32,000 nucleotides of DNA, taken from the NCBI GenBank assembly GCA_964403935.1, contig CAYOIB010000005.1, positions 1 through 32,000 of the forward strand, in the 5' to 3' direction. Under the pieces are notes generated by a model, which saw only the letters and a list, made by a program, of their open reading frames with translations, made no database searches and was not told the DNA's origin. Source of the stretch: an uncultured Puniceicoccaceae bacterium. GTDB lineage: Bacteria; Verrucomicrobiota; Verrucomicrobiia; Opitutales; Oceanipulchritudinaceae. Positions 4,260-32,000 of this stretch are shown piece by piece. How positions within the stretch are numbered: the first letter of the stretch is position 1; each line of letters starts with the position of its first letter. The translations under genes were made by a program, and so were the position numbers.

Positions 4260-4769
4260 ATGAAAAACCTGAAACCCATTCAAAAGATAACTACGCTCAC
4301 CTCGCTCCTTCTGGTGCTGGGTCTAACAGCTGGCTGCCCTGAACGGACGGTCCCGGAAGAACCGGCTGGAAACAATACCGCCACCCCCCAGGCGACCACG
4401 ACCAGCCCTCAGTCCACTGAGCTGGGTGGAGAAGGCGGCGGCCGTTTCAGCCAAGCTGCCAATGCTGCCCGAGAGAACGTGGGGAACATTGCCTCCCAGA
4501 CCCGCGAGCAACTGCTCGTTGCCTACGAACAGAACCGCGATGAATTCGAAGATCGTATTTCCGCGCTGAAGGAAGAAGCGGACGAAGCGAATGTCGAAGG
4601 CAACAATCGTTTTGAGCAGGAAATGGATCACCTGGAAGAGGCGTGGGACAACTTCGAGAACCTGGTCGATGATGGCGTCGATGCATCCGAGGATGCACTC
4701 TCGTCTGCATGGACTCAGCTGACGCAAGCCTATGAAGAGGCACGCCGTGCCCTCACTGAAGCTCGTTAA
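4260..4769 (+). CDS. Putative lipoprotein, acidic helical C-terminal part, function unknown
   Basis: MKNLKPIQKITTLTSLLLVLGLTAGC is a signal peptide with a lipobox-like LTAG|C. It is followed by a T/P/Q-rich linker and an E/D-rich helical region. The track start GTG 4251 is an alternative. Confidence 0.65.
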   Translation: MKNLKPIQKITTLTSLLLVLGLTAGCPERTVPEEPAGNNTATPQATTTSPQSTELGGEGGGRFSQAANAARENVGNIASQTREQLLVAYEQNRDEFEDRISALKEEADEANVEGNNRFEQEMDHLEEAWDNFENLVDDGVDASEDALSSAWTQLTQAYEEARRALTEAR

Positions 4770-6892
4770 CCCAATTGATCATTGGAAGGCATTTCCAGGA
4801 AGTCCGCGTAACGCTTCTTCCAGTCTTCCAGTTTCTTTAAATATGTAACAGTGTCATAAGGTGCCAGTATGGGATCATACTCGGCGAGGAGGGCGGATCG
4901 TTGCCAGTCAGCGGTCCGCCCTTTCTCTTTGGGCAACAGATAATAGCTCACACGGGCACCGGCTCCTGGGGGTGGTTTCATTCGCCCCGCGACTTCCAGG
5001 GCTGCCCGCCTCGGCTTCCCTGCCTTGGCAACCCGATCCACGTAAGTGCTGTGAGACGTACTGAGGTGCTCGGTCTTTGCGAGCTGTTCGACAGGAAAGC
5101 TCTGGCTTGATATCTCAACCTTCAATTGCTCGAAACGAACCAGGGGCGATATCTCTGAAGCGCCCAGCAACCAGGCGATCATCTGATCTGTCAACTCGAG
5201 AAGAAAAGGTTCCATCCCCCGCGACCGGAGGGCGGAACCCCGGACAATGACATGCGTCCCATCGAAGAGCGCATAGTTCTTCGCCTTGTAACAGAACATT
5301 GCCGGATAGCTTCCATCGCACTCCAGATCAATGCCCTCGGGCAGCCAAGCTCGGGCGGCAGCTAGAAGCTCATCGGGATCGCGACCAGAAGTACTTATAT
5401 AGAGACCATCGGTATCTGCCTCCAGAACCTCACAACCCAAGCCGCTGAAGCCCTCGATCAACGTGTGAAGCAGGTTCCGACCCTGCCGCGTCACCTCCGC
5501 GGCAAGAGCACCATCGCCAAAGCGTGCGTTGCCAAATCCAAGATAGCCGTAAAATGAATTGATCAGGATCTTGAAGGCCTGTTGCCGTGTGTCGGCTTCG
5601 CGCCGGATTACAGGATCAAGACCTTCGGCAGCAAGAGTCTTATAGTGAAGACGGTAGCTCCGAAGCTCAGCCAGCAAGGGGATGAAAAGTTTAAGGTGAT
5701 CTGTCTTCGGGTTCCGTCCCATCAGCAGCAACAGGCTGGGGTAAAGCGATGTGACATCGAAATGAAGCACGTCACGAAAGATCCCCGTGACAAAACTTTT
5801 TGAGAATCCACCCTCAAAGGATCCGATCACTGGCACCTCAGGCAGCGAAGCCGAAGCCTTGAAGTAACGTTCCAAAAGCAACGCCTCCACTTTCTGAGCG
5901 GATCCGCGCAAGCACACCTCCTGCAATAACATGGGGAAAGCCTGCGCCTGCGCAAAATAGGTCGGCAAAAGCAACTCGCTAAGCTCGCCGATCAACCGCA
6001 ACCGCCCCTCGACGTTGAGAGCCGGATCCTGTTCGTTTTTGCCGGATCCTGTCCGCGATGGTTTCCCCTGAGCACCAAAGCCAAAATAGGCGGCGACGGA
6101 CCCAAGGCCGTAGTCTGGAAGCTCACGGGCCGAAACATCCCAAGCCTGAGCGGCAAGAAAGGTGTCGAAGACAGTCCGCCCCGGCAATTCACAGCGGATG
6201 TAATCGACCCAGCGTTCGGCAAAGCGGATCCTGCTTTTACGGACGCGTGCCTCCGCTCCAAAACGCCCCCACAACCGCGGGACCCGAACCCGGCGGGCTC
6301 GCCGGACAAGGGCTTCGAGATCAAAGTTGAACAGGTCGTGTCCTTCGACAACATCCGGATCCCACGCAACCAACAGCTCACCAAACTCCTTGAGCAGCAG
6401 CCTTTCAGCGGCGTCCGTCATCGATTCAATTCGAAGGACGCGCACGCCTGCGTCCCAGGAGGCGCAAAGCCCAATCGCCGCCACACGTGATTCCGTTTGC
6501 TCCGGATTCGAACGATCCTCAACGACCTCGACGGCAACCTGACATCGCCTCAGGTCGCTAAAGTTCGACCCCGCAAAGATGCGTTCACCCGAGGCCATGA
6601 GCACCTGGTGCTCGTAAGGGCGGACAACTTCAGTGAAGCCATTCTCCGAGGCGCGAAGACCCGGCTCGAAGATATCCGGAGGCGCACTGATCCGATGTCC
6701 GAAAGGCCCGGGACCATCGAGCTCGACAACCTCCCACCCTTCAGCGGGAGATCTGTCGCGCGCCCATGCAAAAGGGACGAAGGCTGATGTCTCGGACCGG
6801 ACCTCACCCGTACCGCTCCGGAAGGCGCGGTGGACGCAGGCAGCATGGCTATTAACCCACAAGCCGACCAAGGTGCCCCCGCTCGTTCCCAT
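4766..6892 (-). CDS. polB: Family B DNA polymerase, Pol II-like (708 aa)
   Basis: Motif A is HFDVTSLYPSLL (nt 5735-5758), motif B is KILINSFYGYLG (5546-5572), motif C is ADTDGLYI (DTDG at 5405-5416), followed by a KAKNYAL (KxY) motif. The DPDVVEGHDLFNFDL block aligns with Pol II Exo II. The C-terminal tail resembles the E. coli Pol II end. Confidence 0.9.
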   Translation of the reverse strand: MGTSGGTLVGLWVNSHAACVHRAFRSGTGEVRSETSAFVPFAWARDRSPAEGWEVVELDGPGPFGHRISAPPDIFEPGLRASENGFTEVVRPYEHQVLMASGERIFAGSNFSDLRRCQVAVEVVEDRSNPEQTESRVAAIGLCASWDAGVRVLRIESMTDAAERLLLKEFGELLVAWDPDVVEGHDLFNFDLEALVRRARRVRVPRLWGRFGAEARVRKSRIRFAERWVDYIRCELPGRTVFDTFLAAQAWDVSARELPDYGLGSVAAYFGFGAQGKPSRTGSGKNEQDPALNVEGRLRLIGELSELLLPTYFAQAQAFPMLLQEVCLRGSAQKVEALLLERYFKASASLPEVPVIGSFEGGFSKSFVTGIFRDVLHFDVTSLYPSLLLLMGRNPKTDHLKLFIPLLAELRSYRLHYKTLAAEGLDPVIRREADTRQQAFKILINSFYGYLGFGNARFGDGALAAEVTRQGRNLLHTLIEGFSGLGCEVLEADTDGLYISTSGRDPDELLAAARAWLPEGIDLECDGSYPAMFCYKAKNYALFDGTHVIVRGSALRSRGMEPFLLELTDQMIAWLLGASEISPLVRFEQLKVEISSQSFPVEQLAKTEHLSTSHSTYVDRVAKAGKPRRAALEVAGRMKPPPGAGARVSYYLLPKEKGRTADWQRSALLAEYDPILAPYDTVTYLKKLEDWKKRYADFLEMPSNDQLG

Positions 6893-7740: not shown

Positions 7741-9534
7741 TCAAAAAGACCAGAATAAAGGAATAACGATCATGGAGACAATGAAAGCGACGAAATTGAG
7801 CGGAATCCCAATCCGGGCAAAATCGCTGAAACGATAGCCACCCACACCATAGACATAGGTATTGGTTTGATAGCCAATCGGCGTGGCAAAACTGGCTGAA
7901 GCCGCGATCGCAATGGCCATCAGGAAGGGACGGGGGTCGATCTCCATCATCTGGGCAAGACCGATCGCGACCGACGTAAGAAGAACGGCCACCGCGTTGT
8001 TCGAAAGAACCTCCGTCAGGATACTTGTGAGGAGGTAAATGCCCACCAAGAGCGCAAATGGCTGCCAAGGCTCAGAAACAAAGGTCGAAACGGAGGCAAC
8101 CAGTTGCTGCCCCAGCCAGGCGGACGTCCCGGTCGACTCCATAGCGGCCCCCACCCCCAGCATCCCGAAAATAAGAAAGAGGATGGGCCAATGTATCGCT
8201 TCATAGGCTTCCTTCGTTGTCACGCAGCCCGTCAGAAGCAGTAGGACACATCCAATAATCGCGGCAGGAGCGATCGGCATGATGCCCACGCTAGCCGCCA
8301 CCACAACTCCGGCAATAACCCCCAGAATCAACGGCAATTTTTGGCGCCGGGCGACACTCGCAACGGCAGGCTTGTCCAAGACAATAAGGTCCTCACCGCC
8401 TCGAAGCTGGTCCACCGCTTCGGTTGTGCCGAGGAGGAGGAGTGTATCCCCATGTTCGAGCGTTATCCTGTCAAAGGAATCCCGCATGTTTCGGCCTCTT
8501 CGGTGAATGGCCAAGGGAGCCAGGCGATAACGTTGTCTGAAATTGACGTTTCGCAACGCCTCACCCACGAGGTCCGAATTTGCTCCCAAGACAGCTTCGA
8601 TGAGGACACCTTCCGAGAGGCTGATCCCCGTGAGTCCTTCTCCCAGCGCATCCCGAAGATCCAATCCTTCCGAAGGAACACCCGCTGCCACCTTCGGGGA
8701 CATAGACAGCAACAAGCGGTCACCGGCCTGGAGAATCGCCTCGTTCCCCGGAAGATTGAGGCGCACCCCCCGCCGCAGGATTTCCAAGATCCGCAGCCTC
8801 CGCCCACCGGCACGGGTCACTTCTTCCAGTGTCTTTCCGATCAGCGGGGATTTCTTATCGACGAACGCTTCAATCAGGTATTCCCGGCGCTCTGCCTCCG
8901 TCAGAATCGATGAAAGGGTTTCGCGAACCGGAAGCAGACGCGGACCAAAAATCGTCAGAAAGAGAGTTCCCGCAATAAGAAGGGGGATACCGATGACCGC
9001 GAGTTCAAACATGCCAAAGGCCGAATAACCCGCCTGTACCGCCATCGAGCTCACAATAATATTCGTGCTCGTTCCGATCAGCGTGCAGGAACCGCCAAAG
9101 ATGGAGGCGTAGGAAAGCGGAATGAGAAGCTTCGAAGCCGGCACCTGCATTCTCTGGGCGAGACTGAGGACCACCGGCAAAAACACGATCACCACAGGCG
9201 TGTTATTGACGAATGCTGAAGCGAAGGCGACGACGAGGATCATCGCGGGCAAGACCGTCCGCAGACTCATCTTGGGCAAGCGGGTCAATCCGCCGGCAAT
9301 CACGTCAATCGCCCCGCACCGATCCAGCGCAGCGCTGAGAATGAACATCGCCCCGACCGCAATGGGACCGGGATTGGAAAAGACCGCGAGGGCATCCGCC
9401 GGTGCCAGAAGTCCAAGAACCAGCAGCAAGGCAAAGGCGCCCATCGCCGTTAGCTCCGAAGGGATCTTTTCCCACACGAAAGCGATCAGGATACCGCCCA
9501 ACAGGACCAACATGAATGCGATAGGCCACGTCAT
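7741..9534 (-). CDS. SLC13/DASS-family anion transporter with two internal TrkA-C (RCK-C) domains
   Basis: I place the start at ATG 9534 ([14 protein letters not shown]...). The longer track ORF extends antisense into hemF. The protein is multi-TM with FVNNTPVV and [12 protein letters not shown] motifs. Two TrkA-C-like repeats are present (..[19 protein letters not shown].. and ..[23 protein letters not shown]..). Confidence 0.9.
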
Positions 9535-9694
9535 TTGGGGTGCCACTCGAATCAGAAACAGGCAGACCGGCGAGAAAGAAATCCACCGGCTCTCCGGGAG
9601 GGGCACTTCCCCGCAGGCAAGGAGCACGCGGTGCCGCCTTTGGCGTTGCACGGGGGCGGAAGGGGTGGTTGCTTGCCTTCCCGTGCAATCACCT

Positions 9695-10624
9695 GTGGAC
9701 ATCACCGCCGTCGAATCGTTTTTAACCTCGTTGCAGCAACGGATCCTCCAAGCCCTCAGCGATCTGGATCCGGCCCTCGTGGAACGTGAGGATCGCTGGA
9801 AGCGCCCCGGCGGCGGGGGCGGCCGCTCCGTTGCGGTGTCGGGTAACGTTTTTGAGAAGGGGGCGGTCAACTTTTCCGACGTCCACGGCGACACCCTTCC
9901 ACCGGCGGCGACGAAGAACCGGCCGCAGCTTGCGGGACGCCCCTTTCGGGCGTTGGGCGTCAGCGTTGTTATCCATCCTCTGAATCCCTTTATCCCCACC
10001 AGCCACATGAACGTGCGCTTCTTCCGGGCGAATGCCGACGAGCCGGTCTGGTGGTTTGGAGGCGGGTTCGACCTCACGCCCTACTATCCGTATTGGTCGG
10101 ATGCCGTGGAGTGGCATCGTGCAGCCGAAGGGGCCTGCAAGGATTTTGGGACTGATCTCTACGAGCGCTTCAAGGCGGAATGCGACCGCTACTTCTACCT
10201 TCCCCACCGGCAGGAAGCCCGCGGGGTCGGCGGACTTTTCTTCGATGACTTCAATGAGGACGGCTTTGAAGCGGCTTTCGGCTTCACCCGCACGGTGGGC
10301 GAAACCTTCGTCAAAGCCTATACCGCTCTGGTTCGAAAGCGGATGCTCACCCCTTACGAGGACCAACACCGTCATTTCCAGCTCTATCGGCGGGGGCGCT
10401 ATGTGGAGTTCAACCTGCTTCACGACAGAGGAACCCTCTTCGGCCTGCAGAGCGGAGGGAGAACCGAGAGTATTCTCCTGTCCCTGCCCCCGCTGGTTCG
10501 CTGGGATTACAATTGGTCCCCACCACCAGGCTCTCACGAAGCAGCCTTGCAGGAGCATTTCCTCAAGCCCCGCAACTGGTTGCAGGAGCCACCCCCCGAA
10601 GCCTTGCTCCCGGAGGCGAGATAG
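9695..10624 (+). CDS. hemF: Oxygen-dependent coproporphyrinogen III oxidase
   Basis: The HemF match runs along the whole length ([75 protein letters not shown]). I take the start as GTG 9695 (first in-frame start after the homology begins), but it is uncertain by a few codons. Confidence 0.88.
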
Positions 10625-17867: not shown

Positions 17868-18131
17868 ATGATTCGGCGTTTTTTCATCTGGCGGGCGCAA
17901 AAGCGGCTCAGCAAACCCCGCTACAAGATCGACCGTCGAGCTTACCGGGGGCAATTCAATGCGGGCTTCTTCTCCTTCCTTCACCGCACCAAGTTCTGGG
18001 CGACGGACAACGATACTTACTACCGTCGCCGCAAACGCCGACTCCTGATCGCTGGCGTCATCGGGCTCGGCACGCTCGGTTTCGTTGTCTGGATCATTTA
18101 CGAATCCGTTGGTGCCCTCGGCATTTTTTGA
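17868..18131 (+). CDS. Small basic protein with a C-terminal TM helix, hypothetical
   Basis: ATG 17868 (the track used TTG 17832). Third-position GC-rich codon usage resembles the neighbouring genes. The C-terminus LLIAGVIGLGTLGFVVWIIY is a TM segment. I recognise no family. Confidence 0.45.
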   Translation: MIRRFFIWRAQKRLSKPRYKIDRRAYRGQFNAGFFSFLHRTKFWATDNDTYYRRRKRRLLIAGVIGLGTLGFVVWIIYESVGALGIF

Positions 18132-18152
18132 GAGGATCTCTTCCTCAAGCGT

Positions 18153-18644
18153 TCACGGGCGGAAGTGCTTCCCGAAGAGCGGAATGCCTCTGTAGTGGTG
18201 GACGCAGCTGTCCACCGGAAGATCCAAATTCACCGCCACCACATCAAACCGCACCGTTGTCGGCGACTTTCTCAACTGACTCAGGTAAGCCTTGGCCGTT
18301 CGACGAAGCACTTTGCGTTTCCGCGGCCGAATACTGGCATAGGCATTCAGGGGAGAACCCCTCCGAACCCGCACCTCGACGAAGACAACCGCCGGCCCCT
18401 CCCGCATCACGAGGTCCAGCTCGCCCCGGCCACTCCGCCAGTTCTTGGCCAGCAAGACCATTCCTCCCTTTCGCAAGGCTTGGACAGCCAGTTCTTCACC
18501 CTTATCACCCCGCAGTTGGGCTTCAGTCCTTGAGGATGTCCTGAAGCCGTGGAGGTCGCTGGGGAAGCAGCGTCCGGCCAAGGCCGGAAACCAACCGTGG
18601 AAGCGTCGTTTCAGCCAATTCGCCATGGTTAATGCCTTTGACAT
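18153..18644 (-). CDS. YraN-family (UPF0102) endonuclease-like protein
   Basis: GDKGEELAVQALRKGGMVLLAKNWRSGRGELDLVMREGPAVVFVEVRVRR reproduces the YraN core (GE.A..L...G......N.R...GE.DL......VFVEV+.R). A ~40-aa N-terminal extension leaves the start uncertain (ATG 18644 or 18626). Confidence 0.8.
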   Translation of the reverse strand: MSKALTMANWLKRRFHGWFPALAGRCFPSDLHGFRTSSRTEAQLRGDKGEELAVQALRKGGMVLLAKNWRSGRGELDLVMREGPAVVFVEVRVRRGSPLNAYASIRPRKRKVLRRTAKAYLSQLRKSPTTVRFDVVAVNLDLPVDSCVHHYRGIPLFGKHFRP

Positions 18645-18736
18645 AGAAACCCCCGGACGCCATAGCTTGGCGAGATTTATTTATCTGCGCCTCAGGCAAT
18701 ATATCACCCCCTCAGGCCGAATCACTTACCAGGATT

Positions 18737-20980
18737 ATGAAGAGCAATCTCTCCGGCGTGCTCCGGCGCACCCTCCTCCTCAAGGTCATCTCGAAACCTC
18801 AGCCCACGCGCGAGGATGTCGAGTCCATCATCGAACTCACGGCAAACAAGGTGGTGGAGGCCATCGAAGCGCAGTCCATGACCCTCTACCTCGTGGAAGA
18901 CGGGAAGATTGGTTTCAAATACGTTTATTTCTCTCCCACCCTCTGGGAAGATTTCCCGGAGCGGGAGGCGGAGTTTGCCGGCAAACGTGATACTTTGCTA
19001 ACGATGAAAATACCCGAGGGAACGGGTGTTGTAGGCAAGGTGATCGCATCGGGGCAGCCCGCCTTCTACTCCTTCGAACAGGATGTCGACCGCATCCACT
19101 CCCTCTCCAAGCAGACCGGCTTCGAGATCACTTCGATGCTCACTGTTCCTCTCCGCGGGTCCAACCGGATCATCGGCGCAATCCAGCTACTGAACAAGGA
19201 GCCCTTTGCCGACGACGATGTCTTCACCGATAACGATTTGGCCTTCCTCGAAGAAGTGGCGGAATATTCCGCACCCCTTCTTCAGCGCATGCTCGATCCC
19301 GGGTTTCGACCCGACGATCGCGAAACGGCCAAGTTCATCGCCCGGTTCACCGACAACCGGCTCGTTCTCGATGAGAGCGAGGTGGAAGTCGACGAAGAGC
19401 TGATTGGTGTCGCGGGTGACGGCATTATCCGCCGAACCCATATTCTGCCTTACAAACGTATTGGGGGTCAGGCCGTCGCCGCTCTGATGACCAATCCGCT
19501 GGATTATCCAAACCGCGAAAGCTTTCAGAACGCAACCGACCTGCACATCGAAGAAGTTGTTGTCGCTCCAACCTCTCTGATCGACGCGCTCCTGAAAAGA
19601 CATTCCAGCAGCTCAAGTGAAGTTGCCGATGCCCCTCACATCGACAGTGGAGAGATGGCGGAAATCGCCGATGTAATCGGGGTTGAATACGCCGAAGGTG
19701 GCGAAGGCGCGAGCGAGGATGACCTGACAGATGAAGAATCCGCGCCCATCATTCAACTCGCGAACCGCATTGTCGAAGACGCTTACATTACCGGCGCCTC
19801 CGATATCCATATCGAGCCACAGGAAAAGGATTTGATCGTTCGTTATCGGATTGACGGTATCTGTTCGGAAAAGCTCCACCTCCCGGCAAAAGTAGCCGGT
19901 GCTCTCGTGGCCCGGCTGAAGGTGATGGCAGACCTCGACATCGCGGAAAAACGTCTGCCGCAAGACGGACGTATCATTTTCAAGCGCTATACGAAGAAGA
20001 ATATCGACATCGACTTGCGCGTTGCCACAGGCCCGATGAACCACGGCGAAAAAGTGGTCATGCGTATTCTTGATAAAACCAAGTCCGCCCTCCCGATCAC
20101 CGCTCTCGGCTTCTCTCAGGAGAATCTGGATAAATACCGCGAGTGCATTGTCCAGCCCTACGGAATGATCTTGCACTGCGGGCCAACGGGTTCGGGCAAA
20201 TCGATGACCTTGTTCTCGGCCCTTCGCGAAGTGGCGTCACCCGAGGTCAATATTCAGACGGCGGAAGACCCAATCGAATACACCGTCCCCGGCATCAACC
20301 AGATGCAAATGCACCGGCAGATCGGGCTGACTTTTGCGAAGGCCCTGCGCGCCTACCTCCGAATGGATCCGGATATTATCCTCGTCGGGGAAATCCGCGA
20401 CCAGGAAACCGCTGAAATCGCCGTTGAGGCGGCTCTCACCGGTCACCTGCTCTTGTCTACCCTCCACACCAATGACGCTTCATCCACCATCGCGCGCTTT
20501 ACCGACATGGGGATCGAACCTTTCATGATTTCAGCGTCGATGCTCGTCGTTTGCGCACAGCGTTTGATGCGGCGTGTCTGCAAATCCTGCGGCGTCCGCT
20601 ACATTCCGACCGGGAATGAAGCCGAGATCATCGAGCGCGCCCTCGATGGCTGGAATGGGGAAATTTACCGTGCGAGCGAACACGGCTGCGCCCAGTGTGG
20701 AGGCAACGGTATGAAAGGCCGAATTGGTATCCACGAACTCATGCGCAACAACGATGAGATCACAAAGGCGATCAATGCCCGCGCTGAGACCGCCGAAATC
20801 AAACGCATCGCGATGGCTTCGGGAATGAGGACTCTGCATCAAGACAGCATGCTCAAGGTGAAGGAGAACACGTCCACGGTCATCGAAGCGCTCGGAACGG
20901 TTCCTACGGATCTCTACATCGACAAGAAATACGAGGCGGCCATGAACCAGGCAACGGCTGATATGGCACCAACAATCTGA
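18737..20980 (+). CDS. GspE/PilB-family type II/IV secretion ATPase with an N-terminal GAF domain
   Basis: 747 aa. It has a GAF-like N-terminus (..MTLYLVEDGKIGFKYVYF...GVVGKVIASGQP...MLTVPLRGSNRIIGAIQLLNK) and a T2SSE_N-like segment. The ATPase motifs are Walker A GPTGSGKS, Walker B ILVGEIRD and LTGHLLLSTLHTND. A CxxC...CxxC zinc motif is present (CKSCG...CAQCGG). Confidence 0.9.
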   Translation: MKSNLSGVLRRTLLLKVISKPQPTREDVESIIELTANKVVEAIEAQSMTLYLVEDGKIGFKYVYFSPTLWEDFPEREAEFAGKRDTLLTMKIPEGTGVVGKVIASGQPAFYSFEQDVDRIHSLSKQTGFEITSMLTVPLRGSNRIIGAIQLLNKEPFADDDVFTDNDLAFLEEVAEYSAPLLQRMLDPGFRPDDRETAKFIARFTDNRLVLDESEVEVDEELIGVAGDGIIRRTHILPYKRIGGQAVAALMTNPLDYPNRESFQNATDLHIEEVVVAPTSLIDALLKRHSSSSSEVADAPHIDSGEMAEIADVIGVEYAEGGEGASEDDLTDEESAPIIQLANRIVEDAYITGASDIHIEPQEKDLIVRYRIDGICSEKLHLPAKVAGALVARLKVMADLDIAEKRLPQDGRIIFKRYTKKNIDIDLRVATGPMNHGEKVVMRILDKTKSALPITALGFSQENLDKYRECIVQPYGMILHCGPTGSGKSMTLFSALREVASPEVNIQTAEDPIEYTVPGINQMQMHRQIGLTFAKALRAYLRMDPDIILVGEIRDQETAEIAVEAALTGHLLLSTLHTNDASSTIARFTDMGIEPFMISASMLVVCAQRLMRRVCKSCGVRYIPTGNEAEIIERALDGWNGEIYRASEHGCAQCGGNGMKGRIGIHELMRNNDEITKAINARAETAEIKRIAMASGMRTLHQDSMLKVKENTSTVIEALGTVPTDLYIDKKYEAAMNQATADMAPTI

Positions 20981-24960: not shown

Positions 24961-25758
24961 CTAGGGGCGCGTCGCGAGCTGCACCACCTCGTCGTCAAAA
25001 TAGTTCCAGTCCATTCCGGCATTCACCACAATACCCTGAGCATTGATGCCGCTGCTGCGGGGGCTCAACAAAAACGCTGCTGTGTCGGCCACCTCCCGCG
25101 TGTCCAAAGCCCGCTTGCGCATGGTCAGCTTCTCGGCAAAGAGGTAATTCTCAAGATATCCCGGAATCCCGGCTGAGCTCTTCGTCTTCAGAGGCCCGGC
25201 ATTGATCGTATTAAAACGCACCTCGGTATCCTCGCTGAACGACTTCGCAAGAAAGCGCACACACCCTTCGAGGGCCGCCTTGATCGGCGACATATAACCA
25301 TAGCTCGCTGCCGTCACATACGATGAAATCCCAACCGCCACCACTGAAGCATCCTTTGCCAAGACCGGTTTGAAGGCCTGGCAGATCTCCACCAACGAAA
25401 AAGCTGAAATCTGCGTCGCCTGAAGAAAATCGGCCCGCCGCGTTTCATGGAACGGGCGCATCCCTTCGCTGTAATTTGCAAAAGCGATCGAATGAACCAG
25501 CCCATCCACTGTCCCGAATCGGGCTCTGGCCGCCTCGGCCGCAGCGGTGATCTGATCCAAATCCTCCACATCACAGCAAAACGAGGGCCGTTCCCCAAGA
25601 AGCTTGCCGAGCTGCGCCTGGCGTTCCGCTGTGCGCACACCATAAAGCACCTGAGCACCCTCAGCCTCCAGAGCCTGACCAATCGCCCAGGCAACGCTCC
25701 GCCTATTGCTCAGGCCGAAGACCACGACCCGTTTCCCTTTCATCTTCAAAAAACTCAT
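24961..25758 (-). CDS. FabI-like enoyl-ACP reductase (SDR family)
   Basis: I place the start at ATG 25758 (MSFLKMKGKRVVVFG...; ATG 25743 is also possible). Supporting motifs are VHSIAFA and Y-x6-K (SYGYMSPIKAALE), then NTINAGPLKT..S, which follows the FabI pattern. Confidence 0.85.
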   Translation of the reverse strand: MSFLKMKGKRVVVFGLSNRRSVAWAIGQALEAEGAQVLYGVRTAERQAQLGKLLGERPSFCCDVEDLDQITAAAEAARARFGTVDGLVHSIAFANYSEGMRPFHETRRADFLQATQISAFSLVEICQAFKPVLAKDASVVAVGISSYVTAASYGYMSPIKAALEGCVRFLAKSFSEDTEVRFNTINAGPLKTKSSAGIPGYLENYLFAEKLTMRKRALDTREVADTAAFLLSPRSSGINAQGIVVNAGMDWNYFDDEVVQLATRP

Positions 25759-26224
25759 CAAATCCCCTTCTGACCGCACATCTGTCCGTGCCGCACGAAA
25801 CCTCTGAGAAAGGCCCGAAGCCAAGGTGAAGTCCACTCAAAAGCCGAAAGGTTCAGGTGTTGTTTGCACCAAATCAAGGCGCTCTGGTTGGAGCGCATTC
25901 GGCCCCGGCAACCCATTCAGCAAAGCTTTTCGACCATGAGTCTCCGAAACCCTCAGAAGTTCCAGCTAACCGACCCGCACCCGGATACAATTCACCACGC
26001 CCTGTGTAGCAAATTGGCGAGTCTCACCACCGGCTGATTATGCGAGAGCAAACAGCTCTTCGTCTCCAAAGACCAAACCCCGTTGCCCTTCTCACCGGCG
26101 GGATTTGTTCATCGCGATTTTCCTTCACTTGCCCAAACTCGAATCTTACGCTTCAAGAAGTCATCGGCTTATCAATAAGATTATGATCGGCTGATATCTG
26201 CTTCCTTCACCTGCTCGACGCCTC

Positions 26225-29200
26225 ATGTCCGATTCCGATCCTGCCACTCCCTCCACTCCACAGGACCGCCTGCTTATTGATTATTCGGAACGTGTTAATT
26301 TTGCTTTCCAGCAAAACGCGATTCCAGTCATCCGGCGCCTTGAAATTCAAAATAATTCGGAGACGGATTGGCACGAGGTTACGTGTCGCATTCGAACTTA
26401 CCCGGAGTGGGCGGCGACGCATACGGAAAGAATCGCCCGTATTCCTGCCGGAACCGCCTACACCTTGTCGGATCTTCCGCTGGTATTAGACATCGGTTAT
26501 CTCACGAATCTTTCTGAGCGCGCCCGCGGGTTCATTCGTGTCACCGTATCCGCCTCGGATTCCGAGACTGGAGACAGATCCCGGGAGGATGCCAAAGACG
26601 ACGATGCGGAGGCACCGAAAGCGGGGCCGCTTCAAGTTCTGGAATACGATTACCCGGTTGATGTCTACGCACACGACGAATGGACCGGTCTCGTTACCCT
26701 GCCCGAAATCCTCGCGGCATTTGTCACACCCAATCTTTCTGTCATCGAACAACTCCTGAGCAACACCGCCCAATTGCTCGGCAAACGCACGACCTCCAGC
26801 GCGTTGGACGGTTATCAGGCGAATTCCAAAAAGCGTGTTTATGAAATCCTGGACGCGCTCTACGAGTCCGTCCGCGAACAACATATTTGCTACAGTCATC
26901 CTCCCGCGAGTTTCGAGCAGTCGGGGCAACGCATTCGCTTCGCCAACCAGATCCTGAAATCGCGGCTGGGCACTTGTCTCGATCTCTGCCTCCTGTTCGC
27001 CGGGCTCATCGAACAGGCTGGGTTGCACCCGATTGTCTTGATGCACAAAGGCCACGCTTACGCCGGTTGCTGGCTGATCGCCGATAGTTTCAGCGATCCT
27101 GCGACCGACGACTTGCAAAGCATTCGAAAACGCCAAGAGCTCGACGAACTTCTTGTCTTCGAGACCACTCTGGTTTGTGAGGACACCGGAGCCGATTTTG
27201 CCCGCGCGGTCGACGCCGCCAAAGCACACCTTTCGCTCGACGATATTTTCGACACCGCCATCGACATCCACCGCGCCCGAAGTTCCCGAATTCGCCCGCT
27301 CCCTCTTGAACGAAACGACGGCAGCGTGGATGTGCAAAAAGCTTTCGAGCGCCGGGAACATACGTCATCACCCGTTGCCATCCGCCGCCCCGAGCGCGTC
27401 TTCCGCGAAGACATCGATCTCGCGGAGCTCCCCCAAACACCCCAAGGTCGCATCGACAATTGGAAACAACGACTCCTCGATCTCACGCTCCGGAATCGTT
27501 TGCTCAATTTCAAAGAGACCAGGCAAACCGTCCCCTTGCTCTGCCCGCAGCCTGAGCACATGGAAGATGAATTGGCCGCCGACAAGAGTTTCAAAATCCT
27601 TGAACAGACGCCGATGCTCGCAGGAATGGATCCGCGCAGCCTGAGCTTGCACTCCCGGCAATCGGAAGAGGATCCACTGGTCGAGCACCTGATGAACGAG
27701 CTCCACGCAAAACGTCTGCGAAGCTCACTCACCGACAAAGAGCTCTCCCGCCGCCTGCTCGAACTCTACCGGAAGGTTCGTCTCGAAAACGAAGAAAGCG
27801 GAGCCAATACCCTTTACCTCGCCCTGGGCTTCCTCGAATGGAAACAGAACAAAGACGATGAGCGCAGCTTCCACGCCCCGATCCTGCTCATCCCCGTGCA
27901 ACTGCACCGGAAATCCGTCCAACAAGGTTTCAGCCTCCAACGCTACGACGAAGATCCCATCGTCAACGTCACCCTCCTGGAACTGCTCAAACGGGATTAC
28001 GATCTCGACGTGCCGGGTGTGAATCCACCTCCCGAAGACGAGTCCGGTGTCGATGTCGATCGCGTCTTCCGCCTCTTTCAGCACGCCGTCCGGGACATGA
28101 GGGGCTGGGAAGTCCGGCGTGAGGTCTGGCTGGCGCAATTCTCCTTCAATAAATTCCTTCTTTGGAAAGACCTCCAGGACCGGTCCGAAATCCTCTGCCG
28201 CAACGCCGTCGTCGACCACCTCATCAACAAGCCCGGCTCGCCTTTCATTGATCACTTGGAGTCCCTCGCGCCGCGCCAACTCGATGCGACCCTACGCTAC
28301 GACGAGATTTTCTGTCCCATGAGCGCGGATTCCTCCCAGCTCGCCGCCGTCGTGGCCGCATCGAAGGGCAAGAACTTCGTCATGAACGGCCCCCCCGGCA
28401 CGGGCAAGTCCCAGACCATCACAAACATTATCGCTCACTGCCTGGCTGAGGGAAAACGTGTCCTCTTTGTCGCGGAAAAACGGGCCGCGCTCGAAGTCGT
28501 GCACAACCGACTCAGCCAGATCGGACTCGGGCCCTTCTGCCTGGAGCTCCATTCCAACAAATCCGGAAAGTCCGAAGTGCTGCGTCAATTCGGCGAAGCC
28601 TTGCACTATGTCGAGCAACAGTCCGACGACGCATGGCACAACACCGCCAGGCACCTGGAAAGCTTGCGGCGCGAACTCAATGATTACGTTGCGGAACTCC
28701 ACCGCATCTATCCCGCCCATCTCAGTGCCTACCAATGTTATGCCTGGTTGATCGCTCACCCCGATCTCGCCGAATACTGCAAAGACTTCAACAGCCTCGA
28801 CCTCCCCACACCCGAAACCCACACCCGGGAACAACGCGAAGCACTTGAAGCTACCTGTGAACAGATCATGCTGCGTGGACAGGAACGCCGTCTGCCCGCG
28901 AGCGCTCGACACGGTTTGCGAACAATCACGGCAACCGACTGGACGCCCGAATGGGAAGATAGCGTGATCGCGGAAAACCGGGCACTGCAGGAAAGCCTCA
29001 CACACTTCGCGAACCTCTGGGCGCAAGTCGCACCCAAGCTCGGGGCACCCGCTGACACCGCGACCTTTTCGATGTTGGAGGCGGCCAGTGATCTCGCACA
29101 TTCGCTGCGAAACGCACCGACACTTCCGGCAGCATTTATTGGCGACGGTGAGTGGCCTGCATTCAAAGACCAAGTCGTTGCCTGGATCGCCAGCGGACGC

Positions 29201-32000
29201 GCCCGCGACACCGCTCGCGCCAACCTGGACGGTTTCGACCTCGCCCGCCTGTTTCAAACGGACACCCACACCCTGGAAAAAACCTGCGCCGCTATCGTCG
29301 AAAAAGGCGGCGTCCTGAAATCGATTAAACTCTGGCTACAACTCAAGCCTGTCCGCCAAGCTCGCCTCCAGGGTGCGTCCAAGTGGACCGCCGCCGAAGC
29401 CCCGGCATTCTTCGAAAACATCCGCCAACTCAAAGCCGAAACAGCCGTGCTCACGGAAGCCAATGAGCCCGCGACTCATCGGCTCGGCACGCATTGGAAT
29501 CACGGAGAATCCGATTGGGAGGCTCTACAGCAACTTCTCGATTACGGCGATGGATTGCACGCCTCGCTCAACGCCCTCGCCAACGGCTCCGTCGATACCC
29601 TCCTCCAACTCCGCCGCGCCGTCGGGGATCTCATCAGTGTCGGCTCCGAGTTTCTTCGCGCTGGTGCTCAACTCGAAGTTCTCTTTGCGCAACACCACAC
29701 CGCTTGGAGCACGCTCGTTGAGAACTACGTTGTTTTCAAAGAACGCGTCCAGCTCCGCGAACCCGCTGAAGCCGATCCCTTTATTTCAACGATCCAAGGC
29801 ATCTGCAAAGGCCTCGCTACAAACCGTGAACATTTGGCCAACTGGTGTCGCTGGCAAAGCAGCTATCAAGAAGCCCACCGCACCGGACTGCGCCCCTTGC
29901 TCGACGCACTTGCCCGCGAAGCACTGCCTTTGGAACGTTTCCGGGAGGCTTTTGAGTTCGCCTACCGCAACACGTTCCTCAAACGCATTCTCACCCTCTC
30001 ATCCACCTTGAGGGAGTTCTTCGGCGAAGAGCACCAGAAACGGATCGACGCCTTCAACCATTTTGACGCCCGCTACACCGACCTCACCGGAAGAGTGGTC
30101 GCGGCCCGTCTCGCCGCCCGCCTCCCCCGCGCACGAACCGAAAACTGCGCGGAAAACTCCGAACTCGGCATCCTCCAACGCGAACTCGTCAAACGCCGAC
30201 GCCACAAGCCTGTCCGCCGCCTCCTGGCCGAAACACCGGGCGTCGTTCCCGTTCTCAAACCCTGCTTTCTGATGAGTCCCCTTTCCGTCGCCCAATACCT
30301 CGACGCCGAACAAACCGACTTTGATGTGGTCGTGTTCGACGAAGCTTCCCAAATTCCAGTTTGGGATGCTGTCGGAGCGATCGCCCGCGGTAAACAAGTC
30401 ATCATCGTCGGCGACCCCAAACAGCTGCCGCCCACCAATTTCTTCAGCCGGGCTGACAATGACGATGCGTCCTACGAGGACACGGGCGAGGCCGATCTCG
30501 AAAGCATTCTCGATGAATGCCTCGGCTCCGGACTCACGATCTACAACCTTCTCTGGCACTACCGCAGCCGAAAGGAAGGCCTGATCGCGTTCTCCAATTA
30601 CCACTACTACAACAACGAACTTCACACCTTTCCCGCCCCGCACGCCGAAGAGGTCGGCGTGCGCCTTGTCCCCGTGCCAAACGGTTATTATGACAAAGGC
30701 AAATCCCGGACCAATCCCGCCGAAGCCGAAGCGATCAAGATCGAAGTGGTGCGGCGTCTCACCGATCCGGAACTCTCCGAAAAATCGATCGGTATCGTCA
30801 CCTTCAGCCAGGCACAACAAAGCCTGATCCTCGACAAACTCGACGAAGCCCGCCGTGAAACACCCGCCATTGAAGCTCACTTCAACGACGACAGGCACGA
30901 ACCGGTATTCGTCAAAAATCTCGAAAACGTCCAAGGCGACGAACGGGACGTCATCCTCTTCTCCATTTGCTACGGCCCCGATCAGGCGGGCAAACTCTCG
31001 ATGAACTTCGGCCCGCTCAATCGCGAGGGCGGTGAGCGACGGCTCAACGTCGCCGTCACCCGCGCGAAACACGATGTCGTTATTTTCTCCACCCTGCGCA
31101 GCGAGCAAATCGACCTCTCCCGCACCCGCGCCCTCGGTGCCGCTCACCTCAAAAGCTATCTGGAATACGCCGAGCGAGGTCCCGCCGCAATTGCCGGAAA
31201 CATTGAATCCGCCCAGACCACCGACTACGATTCCGTATTCGAAAAAGAAGTCGCCGGGTTTCTCCGGGGAAAAGGCTATACCGTGCATACCCAGATCGGC
31301 TGCTCCGGATACCGTGTCGACCTCGCCATCGTGCACCCCGATACTCCCGGACGTTATCGCCTCGGCATCGAGTGTGACGGTGCCACCTACCATAGTGCCG
31401 CCACCGCCCGCGACCGCGACCGCCTCCGACAATCCGTCCTCGAAGGTCTCGGCTGGCGGATTCACCGCATCTGGTCCACTGACTGGTGGCGCAATGCAAA
31501 CAATGCCCGCGACGACCTGCTCACCGAAGTTGAAGCCGCGCTGAAACAGCCGCTTCACAAAAACACTCCCAAAACGCCACCCGAACCCCAAACGCCTTTT
31601 CGATATGCCAACACCGTCGACACGGGCACCACAGTTGTCGAAGAAGCCCCGCCTCCGAAAACCGTTCGGAAGAAAAGTTACCCGAAAATCGTGCCTGTTC
31701 CCCACGGTCCGGCTGAGGTCTTTTACGAACCCAGGGGTCGCCCGATCCTTAAAACGCAGATTCAACGAATCATCGAGGCCGAAGGCCCGATCACAGTCGA
31801 CTTGATCACCCGCCGTGTCGCCCAGGAATGGGGATTCACGCGCATCGCCTCAAAAATCCGGCAGATCATCCAGGAAAATCTCCCTCGACGTTCACACGAT
31901 TCCGGAGCAAACGTCCCAACCTATTGGCCTGAATCCGTCGATCCCGGGACCTACACCTACTACCGGATCGCCGATCGCGAAGTCCGAAAATTCGAAGACG
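26225..32000 (+). CDS. Giant multidomain SF1 (Upf1-like) helicase-nuclease, 3' end beyond window (at least 1,925 aa)
   Basis: The nearest upstream in-frame stop is TGA 26192 and the first ATG is 26225. I translated the whole frame by hand and found no stop up to nt 32000. Recognisable blocks are a DUF4011-type WKQRLLDLTLRNRLLNFK and ANTLYLALGFLEW, Walker A MNGPPGTGKSQTI, motif II VVVFDEASQI, then IIVGDPKQLPPT, YRSR, VQGDERDVILFS and RRLNVAVTRAK. These are followed by a DUF559-type nuclease and a DUF3320-like tail. It is absent from the supplied ORF track. Confidence 0.92.
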   Translation, partial: MSDSDPATPSTPQDRLLIDYSERVNFAFQQNAIPVIRRLEIQNNSETDWHEVTCRIRTYPEWAATHTERIARIPAGTAYTLSDLPLVLDIGYLTNLSERARGFIRVTVSASDSETGDRSREDAKDDDAEAPKAGPLQVLEYDYPVDVYAHDEWTGLVTLPEILAAFVTPNLSVIEQLLSNTAQLLGKRTTSSALDGYQANSKKRVYEILDALYESVREQHICYSHPPASFEQSGQRIRFANQILKSRLGTCLDLCLLFAGLIEQAGLHPIVLMHKGHAYAGCWLIADSFSDPATDDLQSIRKRQELDELLVFETTLVCEDTGADFARAVDAAKAHLSLDDIFDTAIDIHRARSSRIRPLPLERNDGSVDVQKAFERREHTSSPVAIRRPERVFREDIDLAELPQTPQGRIDNWKQRLLDLTLRNRLLNFKETRQTVPLLCPQPEHMEDELAADKSFKILEQTPMLAGMDPRSLSLHSRQSEEDPLVEHLMNELHAKRLRSSLTDKELSRRLLELYRKVRLENEESGANTLYLALGFLEWKQNKDDERSFHAPILLIPVQLHRKSVQQGFSLQRYDEDPIVNVTLLELLKRDYDLDVPGVNPPPEDESGVDVDRVFRLFQHAVRDMRGWEVRREVWLAQFSFNKFLLWKDLQDRSEILCRNAVVDHLINKPGSPFIDHLESLAPRQLDATLRYDEIFCPMSADSSQLAAVVAASKGKNFVMNGPPGTGKSQTITNIIAHCLAEGKRVLFVAEKRAALEVVHNRLSQIGLGPFCLELHSNKSGKSEVLRQFGEALHYVEQQSDDAWHNTARHLESLRRELNDYVAELHRIYPAHLSAYQCYAWLIAHPDLAEYCKDFNSLDLPTPETHTREQREALEATCEQIMLRGQERRLPASARHGLRTITATDWTPEWEDSVIAENRALQESLTHFANLWAQVAPKLGAPADTATFSMLEAASDLAHSLRNAPTLPAAFIGDGEWPAFKDQVVAWIASGRARDTARANLDGFDLARLFQTDTHTLEKTCAAIVEKGGVLKSIKLWLQLKPVRQARLQGASKWTAAEAPAFFENIRQLKAETAVLTEANEPATHRLGTHWNHGESDWEALQQLLDYGDGLHASLNALANGSVDTLLQLRRAVGDLISVGSEFLRAGAQLEVLFAQHHTAWSTLVENYVVFKERVQLREPAEADPFISTIQGICKGLATNREHLANWCRWQSSYQEAHRTGLRPLLDALAREALPLERFREAFEFAYRNTFLKRILTLSSTLREFFGEEHQKRIDAFNHFDARYTDLTGRVVAARLAARLPRARTENCAENSELGILQRELVKRRRHKPVRRLLAETPGVVPVLKPCFLMSPLSVAQYLDAEQTDFDVVVFDEASQIPVWDAVGAIARGKQVIIVGDPKQLPPTNFFSRADNDDASYEDTGEADLESILDECLGSGLTIYNLLWHYRSRKEGLIAFSNYHYYNNELHTFPAPHAEEVGVRLVPVPNGYYDKGKSRTNPAEAEAIKIEVVRRLTDPELSEKSIGIVTFSQAQQSLILDKLDEARRETPAIEAHFNDDRHEPVFVKNLENVQGDERDVILFSICYGPDQAGKLSMNFGPLNREGGERRLNVAVTRAKHDVVIFSTLRSEQIDLSRTRALGAAHLKSYLEYAERGPAAIAGNIESAQTTDYDSVFEKEVAGFLRGKGYTVHTQIGCSGYRVDLAIVHPDTPGRYRLGIECDGATYHSAATARDRDRLRQSVLEGLGWRIHRIWSTDWWRNANNARDDLLTEVEAALKQPLHKNTPKTPPEPQTPFRYANTVDTGTTVVEEAPPPKTVRKKSYPKIVPVPHGPAEVFYEPRGRPILKTQIQRIIEAEGPITVDLITRRVAQEWGFTRIASKIRQIIQENLPRRSHDSGANVPTYWPESVDPGTYTYYRIADREVRKFED
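26870..27200 (+). other. Transglutaminase-like (papain-fold) core within the giant ORF
   Basis: ILKSRLGTC(251)LDLCLLFAGLIEQAGLHPIVLMHKGH(277)AYAGCWL ... ELLVFE(313)TT. The Cys codon is at 26975-26977, His at 27053-27055 and Glu at 27161-27163. The spacing resembles the Cys/His/Asp cores of transglutaminase-like domains. Confidence 0.5.
27449..28310 (+). other. DUF4011-type region of the giant ORF
   Basis: RIDNWKQRLLDLTLRNRLLNFKETRQTVPL ... ESGANTLYLALGFLEWKQ ... HAPILLIPVQL ... WLAQFSFNKFLLWKDL is the motif series characteristic of DUF4011-containing helicases. Confidence 0.7.
28319..31120 (+). other. Upf1-like SF1 helicase core (AAA_11/AAA_12-type) with a ~640-aa insert between Walker A and motif II
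   Basis: The Walker A Lys codon is at 28406-28408 (aa 728). The DE of motif II is at 30338-30343 (aa 1372-1373). C-terminal RecA-like motifs are present up to VAVTRAK. Confidence 0.85.
31238..31489 (+). other. DUF559/Vsr-like PD-(D/E)xK endonuclease module
   Basis: FEKEVAGFLRGKGYTVHTQIGCSGYRVD(1699)LAIVHP...RLGIE(1716)CD(1718)GATYHS...RDRLRQSVLEGLGWRIHRIWSTDWW. The ..VDL.. / IExDG..H pattern is that of DUF559-type restriction-endonuclease-like domains. Confidence 0.7.
31700..32000 (+). other. DUF3320-like C-terminal region (truncated by window end)
   Basis: ...ILKTQIQRIIEAEGPITVDLITRRVAQEWGFTRIASKIRQIIQENLP... resembles the winged-helix-like tail usually found after the nuclease module in DUF4011/DUF3320 helicases. 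Confidence 0.5.

Follow-up and report, generated by a model that had tools for sequence, protein, structure and literature searches.

We analysed a 32,000-nucleotide window (positions 1 to 32,000 of contig CAYOIB010000005.1, assembly GCA_964403935.1) from an uncultured Puniceicoccaceae bacterium, at the end of which a giant forward-strand open reading frame (ORF), still open at the last nucleotide, joins a helicase and a nuclease in one polypeptide. Our reading, to which we give a probability of roughly three in four, is that this ORF, here called proA, belongs to the ProA family of stand-alone anti-phage helicase-nucleases, proteins of about 2,000 residues, and is a chromosomal copy carried by a verrucomicrobium of the Opitutia class. 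An earlier note, made from the letters of the window, had proposed the gene as a defence candidate. That proposal is supported at the level of the family: the protein passes the curated equivalog model for ProA and matches the models for PDC-S37 and Hhe, and its relatives are non-syntenic and borne by mobile elements. Judged by these sequence matches, the window protein is no discovery but belongs, as a routine member, to a family that has already been curated, and the gene adds one more chromosomal member, from the Verrucomicrobia/Opitutia, to a very large family.

Reading frame and family identity

Translation of the window confirms a claim of the earlier note, that the +2 frame from ATG 26225 stays free of stops through nucleotide 32000. 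The frame holds 1,925 codons and zero stops; given the base composition of the region, a random codon would be a stop with p = 0.031 and an open run this long has a chance of about 10^-26. ATG 26225 is the sole start candidate past the in-frame TGA at 26192, and alignments with close homologues begin at residue 1. An NCBI protein (P0001), encoded on a 78,782-bp contig, is 100% identical to the window translation and has 1,995 residues; the window thus stops just 70 codons short of the end, and the residues that these encode were recovered from that record.

The five antisense ORFs described over the gene were found at exactly the positions reported for them (26486-27361, 27058-27738, 27725-28279, 28292-29269 and 29999-31765), and at E ≤ 0.01 Pfam matches none of them. 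The giant gene is indeed missing from the ORF list that accompanied the sequence, as the earlier note had remarked, but the cause is a bookkeeping artefact and no biological oddity, because ORFs cut by the end of the source sequence are not listed. Long shadow ORFs lie antisense to real genes throughout the window (e.g., a 500-residue ORF at 9122-10624 (+), opposite the CitMHS transporter gene at 7741-10077), so that those over proA are nothing peculiar to this gene but typical of the sequence as a whole. An annotation should call one 1,995-codon ProA-family anti-phage gene here and drop the five antisense ORFs.

Despite the 70 missing C-terminal residues, the window protein scores 2083.6 bits against NCBIfam equivalog NF058533.1, 'anti-phage protein ProA', whose cut-off is 1500. 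The match is a single stretch in which residues 25-1924 correspond to model positions 1-1865 of 1903, and the N-terminal 410 residues on their own reach 350 bits over model positions 1-339. The model covers all modules of the window protein, from the N-terminal one through DUF4011, helicase, insertion and nuclease to the tail, and shows no structural difference from it. The earlier note had taken this combination of modules to be one with no assigned function; a curated anti-phage model in fact covers it end to end. Relative to the plasmid-borne proteobacterial members of ProA, the window copy is verrucomicrobial and chromosomal, and 35-39% identical to them. Moreover, the defence candidate PDC-S37 of PADLOC-DB v2, for which the PADLOC library lists no curated cut-off, matches at 1310.4 bits over most of its length (residues 408-1888 to model positions 8-1442 of 1550); its model starts at DUF4011 and leaves the N-terminal module uncovered.

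Among named systems, Hhe (Gao et al. 2020) is the closest relative of the window protein. It is a single-gene defence whose one polypeptide likewise combines DUF4011, a split superfamily 1 (SF1) helicase and a Vsr-type nuclease, the core that the two share. Nevertheless, the NCBIfam model for Hhe, NF042953.1, gives 897.4 bits, well short of its cut-off of 2000, and the PADLOC Hhe model gives 629 bits. Scanned segment by segment, the Hhe model aligns only to DUF4011, to the late insertion and helicase, and to the nuclease, and matches neither the N-terminal module of about 390 residues nor the DUF3320 tail. Plasmid copies from Klebsiella and P. aeruginosa, together with homologues from Puniceicoccaceae and Oryzomonas, also pass the ProA cut-off (2075-2372 bits) and fail that of Hhe (806-868 bits across the four proteins). 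As the domain matches describe it, ProA extends an Hhe-type core at both ends, by a beta-sandwich/transglutaminase-like module at the N-terminus and by DUF3320 at the C-terminus.

Mokosh, which the earlier note had offered as its comparison, shares with the window protein the use of a COG1112/Upf1-like SF1 helicase in defence. We rejected it as the closest analogue, since its models match the generic helicase only, namely the C-terminal half (100.8 and 94.6 bits for the MkoA/MkoC models). Pfam finds no PLD domain in the window protein, which lacks the PLD nuclease of Mokosh and differs from it in nuclease class and in overall architecture.

Domain architecture and conserved residues

All five modules that had been named from the letters were recovered (Table 1): DUF4011, AAA_11/AAA_12, MTES_1575/DUF559 and DUF3320 by Pfam, and the transglutaminase-like module below the Pfam threshold, with backing from its fold and its triad. 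The three predicted catalytic sites (helicase, nuclease and transglutaminase-like) vary little or not at all among 119 homologues.

Table 1. Features of the proA gene and its upstream spacer, in window coordinates (aa, amino acid residues of the window protein; CDS, coding sequence).
Feature	Position	Strand	Basis
proA-family CDS, codons 1-1925 of 1995	26225..32000	+	No in-frame stop; P0001; NCBIfam NF058533.1; 3' end beyond window
N-terminal beta-sandwich (Ig-like), aa 15-147	26267..26665	+	AlphaFold2 strands; Foldseek; in all 120 best homologues
Transglutaminase-like (papain-fold) domain, aa 160-353, Cys251/His277/Glu313	26702..27283	+	Weak Pfam, Foldseek, conservation
DUF4011, aa 416-588	27470..27988	+	PF13195 E 5.6e-47, full-length model match; Hhe model positions 115-285
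SF1 helicase domain 1A, N-terminal part, Walker A GPPGTGKS aa 722-729, K728	28313..28624	+	AAA_19, AAA_30, AAA_11 matches
All-alpha insertion of ~540 aa (aa ~801-1340) splitting helicase 1A	28625..30244	+	AlphaFold2 model; no Pfam family
Helicase motifs II-VI, rest of 1A and 2A	30299..31102	+	AAA_11 C-terminal part, AAA_12, PDB matches
MTES_1575 / Vsr-DUF559-type PD-(D/E)xK nuclease, aa 1672-1767	31238..31525	+	PF18741; D1699, E1716, D1718
DUF3320, aa 1833-1880	31721..31864	+	PF11784 E 2.3e-15
Divergent intergenic spacer, FabI-like gene (-) to proA	25837..26224	.	ORF list; ~466 bp if FabI starts at Met27

The helicase appears split in Pfam, with AAA_19/AAA_30/AAA_11 at residues 703-765, the C-terminal part of AAA_11 at 1361-1404 and AAA_12 at 1440-1622, and its motif sites are DEASQ (1372-1376), GDPKQLPP (1396-1403), QGDERD (1570) and VAVTRA (1609). 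The Walker A lysine K728 is invariant (119/119 homologues), as are DEASQ, motif III and other helicase motif residues. Sequence matches in the PDB are to Upf1-like SF1B helicases only, namely IGHMBP2 (E 3e-10) and Upf1, with Sen1 and Nam7/Upf1 over residues 1363-1626; the IGHMBP2-family model TIGR00376 also matches. Walker A, motif II and motifs III-VI, together with best similarity to Upf1/IGHMBP2/Sen1, identify the motor as an Upf1-like SF1B helicase. The likeness to IGHMBP2, Sen1 and Upf1/Nam7 is one of the motor only (motifs I-VI), to which the window protein adds the long insertion in 1A as well as the nuclease, transglutaminase-like, DUF4011 and DUF3320 modules.

No Pfam match falls within residues 771-1360, between Walker A and motif II. 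A locally confident AlphaFold2 model of residues 690-1440 (m7e67dd649d06; predicted local distance difference test score (pLDDT) 84, predicted template modelling score (pTM) 0.58) makes the insertion entirely alpha-helical, and a Foldseek search of the PDB returned no credible match to a solved fold. Coiled-coil matches to dynein, Rad50 and JetC had low Foldseek probability, and we drew no inference from them. Within the protein, conservation is lowest in the insertion (0.35-0.45 column identity). Some homologues (P0072, P0100 and P0061) are 250-300 residues longer in the region aligned to window residues ~800-1340; reading of their sequences suggests that a helical unit has been duplicated in tandem there, and such duplications may explain the length range of the family, 1,750-2,320 residues.

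Downstream of the motor, PF18741 (MTES_1575) scores 131.8 bits against a gathering cut-off of 38.2 (E 9.6e-39), with a weak DUF559 match (E 2.4e-4). Among the 119 homologues, D1699 and E1716 are each retained in 118 and D1718 in all. A profile score above the cut-off with the acidic catalytic residues kept identifies a Vsr/MTES_1575 nuclease, and K728, D1699 and E1716 stand at the positions that had been named for them earlier. DUF3320 is present in one copy only, also when the full-length tail is included. A subgroup of homologues of about 1,750 residues (P0080, P0046, P0052 and similar) is without the DUF3320 tail in precomputed Pfam lists, and the tail is therefore dispensable in part of the family.

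The N-terminal AlphaFold2 model (m847e0f3cf16b), built on a 17-sequence alignment (pLDDT 80, pTM 0.76), folds into two domains, the beta-sandwich and an alpha/beta domain. By Foldseek, the sandwich resembles those of PapD/CsuC-type chaperones (E 6e-5 to 3e-3, with high root-mean-square deviation (rmsd)), and the alpha/beta domain superposes on TG2, TG3, factor XIII, protein 4.2 and PNGase (probability 1.00; rmsd 2.6-4 Å over ~140 columns). Pfam matches to the second domain stay below their gathering scores (DUF553, E 0.042, 13.7 vs 20.5 bits; Transglut_core, E 0.17, 12.6 vs 23 bits), and the same weak matches recur across the family (DUF553 in 14 of 17 members, Transglut_core in 8 of 17). A search of the PDB with the N-terminal profile gave no matches. 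Cys251 and His277 are invariant in all 119 full-length homologues, of which 116 have Glu and 3 have Asp at position 313. The module is present in each of the 120 best homologues, and its profile finds 7,198 clusters (50% identity, E ≤ 0.001), the best matches being mostly of 1,900-2,100 residues.

We accept, on the modelled structure, the assignment of a transglutaminase-like fold with a retained Cys-His-Asp/Glu triad, whose activity is a prediction only. It is tempting to go further and suppose that the domain is a working enzyme (protease, deamidase or cross-linker) by which a phage protein is sensed or attacked, which would make ProA a three-enzyme immune protein in which a thiol enzyme gates the nuclease, and in which the expandable helical insertion could be a variable recognition surface; we regard this extension as speculative and rather unlikely. 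The role of the invariant triad in ProA is in any case a family-wide question and not one specific to this locus.

Distribution of relatives and proposed function

Metagenomes and metagenome-assembled genomes labelled Verrucomicrobia, Puniceicoccaceae or Opitutia are the source of the closest relatives (56-71% identity), of which at least 20 are Verrucomicrobia-like. None of the window's 11 upstream genes was found within 10 kb of five relatives with 56-70% identity, and the neighbourhoods of close relatives differ among themselves, with an ECF sigma factor and gyrBA at one, HipBA and a truncated second copy at another, and elsewhere two-component and SDR genes or a HigB-like toxin. More distant chromosomal members (42-44% identity) adjoin, in one case, a ParE toxin, a PD-(D/E)xK protein, ORF6N and an SMC-like ATPase cluster; in another, an integrase, a rolling-circle Rep and DUF2726; in a third, a resolvase, PLD, AAA_13/Metallophos/SMC-like genes and an integrase; and in a fourth, a phage integrase lying immediately upstream, with HigB and an IS3 transposase nearby.

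Plasmids carry the family as well. The window protein matches 607 plasmid records, from Proteobacteria and Bacteroides and at ≥ 80% coverage in 66, and the matching records include 230 conjugative and 167 mobilizable plasmids. A copy on a Klebsiella IncFIB plasmid is flanked by insertion sequences (IS110 and IS5), and no near-identical copy of this plasmid gene was found in E. coli genomes. The P. aeruginosa copy is cargo on a conjugative plasmid with transfer genes of the integrative and conjugative element (ICE) type, beside ParDE and an integrase. The earlier note had set non-syntenic, patchy placement of homologues as a test of its defence proposal, and at the family level this is what we observe, in the form of mobile-element-borne relatives and differing neighbourhoods.

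No conserved partner gene occurs within 5 kb at 13 loci, where the common ORFs are IS3-type transposases and helix-turn-helix proteins only; because no partner ORF is common to these loci, the data are consistent with proA being a single-gene system. At one locus (L004), a 513-residue gene with AAA_12, MTES_1575 and DUF3320 only (17934-19475 (+)) lies 2 kb downstream of a 70%-identical proA homologue; from its sequence it is a truncated second copy or remnant. At two unrelated loci (L009, 15978-20868; L011, 16150-22244), a proA homologue is directly followed by an ATPase cluster of the SMC_N/AAA_23 or AAA_13/Metallophos/AAA_15 type. The clusters resemble defence systems in their own right, suggestive of a defence-island setting.

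What is known of Hhe guides our proposal for function. Hhe defends against lambda, T3, T7 and PhiV-1, and the Vsr-domain mutation E1731A abolishes its defence (10.1101/2022.06.16.496414). Class II DNA-metabolism genes of T7 behave as triggers of Hhe, and a Bas63 gene is toxic only together with Hhe (10.1101/2024.10.10.617714). By analogy, the ATP-driven SF1B motor of ProA would load on nucleic-acid intermediates from phage DNA replication or recombination, and its translocation, coupled to the C-terminal nuclease, would lead to nicking or cleavage of the DNA and so block replication of the phage, perhaps at the expense of the infected cell itself. Sensing or regulation (gating) would probably fall to the transglutaminase-like module and to the helical insertion, which is variable. 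Substrate, trigger, outcome and the roles of the N-terminal module and DUF3320 are what we infer in this proposal.

Several points weigh against an anti-phage role. Full-text literature searches found no paper describing an anti-phage ProA, the matches being to 'proactive' or to the proline gene proA, and the anti-phage label therefore comes from the NCBIfam model name alone; a literature search for PDC-S37 likewise found no paper mentioning it. Upf1-like helicases often act on RNA, so that a DNA substrate is an assumption. At the window locus itself, no tRNA, integrase or defence gene was found in the 26 kb upstream of proA, the GC content of the gene (0.582) and of its third codon positions (0.670) is the same as that of neighbouring genes, and nothing marks a recent insertion. 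Furthermore, a large DUF4011 gene of P. aeruginosa (PA14_RS11765) belongs to the core genome of that species and occurs in every isolate (PMC10250203), and hence not all proteins of the superfamily are accessory.

Some of these points would suit a housekeeping helicase-nuclease, core in its lineage, that maintains the genome by processing stalled forks, R-loops or mismatches in host DNA. The core P. aeruginosa gene and the matching composition fit such an enzyme, as do the housekeeping genes upstream (heme synthesis, ThyA/DHFR, UDG, a family-B polymerase and FabI), the fact that Vsr is itself a repair nuclease, and the number of Verrucomicrobia-like relatives at 56-71% identity. However, those same relatives occupy differing neighbourhoods, plasmids and integrative elements often carry the family, near insertion sequences and toxin-antitoxin genes, and curated resources class it as anti-phage or as a defence candidate, which together make genome maintenance an improbable main role.

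The plasmid records raise a different alternative, that ProA serves mainly in competition among mobile elements, by anti-plasmid or anti-ICE exclusion or by stabilising its carrier, and not in phage defence as such. Many copies ride on conjugative or mobilizable plasmids, that of P. aeruginosa among ICE-type transfer genes, and copies adjoin toxin-antitoxin stabilisation modules. We hold this, too, to have little chance of being right, given that the family is named anti-phage, that its relative Hhe restricts phages directly, and that the window copy is chromosomal, with no marker of a mobile genetic element in 26 kb. An RNA-directed action like that of Upf1, Sen1 or IGHMBP2, in which ProA would survey phage transcripts or R-loops and its nuclease cut the associated nucleic acid, accords with the TIGR00376 match and with solved relatives that are, by sequence, only Upf1-like RNA/DNA helicases (IGHMBP2, Sen1, Nam7), but it is very improbable in view of a fused nuclease of the DNA-cutting Vsr/PD-(D/E)xK class, candidate Hhe triggers that are phage DNA-metabolism genes, and the ability of SF1B helicases of the Upf1-like clade to translocate on single-stranded DNA too. 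Taken together, the family-level evidence favours phage defence over these rivals.

Upstream spacer and neighbouring genes

The gene had been described as standing alone, behind a 388-bp divergent spacer, in a housekeeping context. The context holds for the upstream side, which is the side inside the window: the 26 kb before proA encode an amine oxidase, a family-B polymerase, ThuA, a CitMHS transporter, HemE/HemN/HemY, ThyA, DHFR, GpsA, a GspE-like ATPase, UDG, MscS, a hydrolase, KAS III and FabI. Synonymous codon usage of proA is mildly atypical for its length, with a relative synonymous codon usage distance of 0.149 vs 0.08-0.11 for other long genes.

The divergent layout also stands, and the figure of 388 bp is correct for the listed GTG start of the FabI-like ORF (24961-25836 (-)). 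The Pfam match of that ORF begins only at residue 41, and because of this its true start is probably the Met at residue 27, near 25758, which would make a spacer of ~466 bp the more probable length. Within the spacer upstream of proA we found no sigma-70-like promoter and no credible small ORF, and there were no Rfam families in the spacer or elsewhere in the window, which also has no tRNA. Its repeats are short and two-copy only. Two direct-repeat pairs stand just 5' of the proA ATG, one at 26120-26132 / 26202-26214 (TTCCTTCAC(T/C)TGC, spaced 82 bp) and one at 26163-26172 / 26186-26195 (ATCGGCT(T/G)AT, spaced 23 bp), and they could be operator-like sites or chance matches.

Amid the housekeeping genes, a 708-residue ORF at 4766-6892 (-) matches family-B DNA polymerase (PF00136, E 2.4e-17) and its exonuclease (PF03104, E 9e-7), and by these matches it is probably a Pol II-type enzyme.

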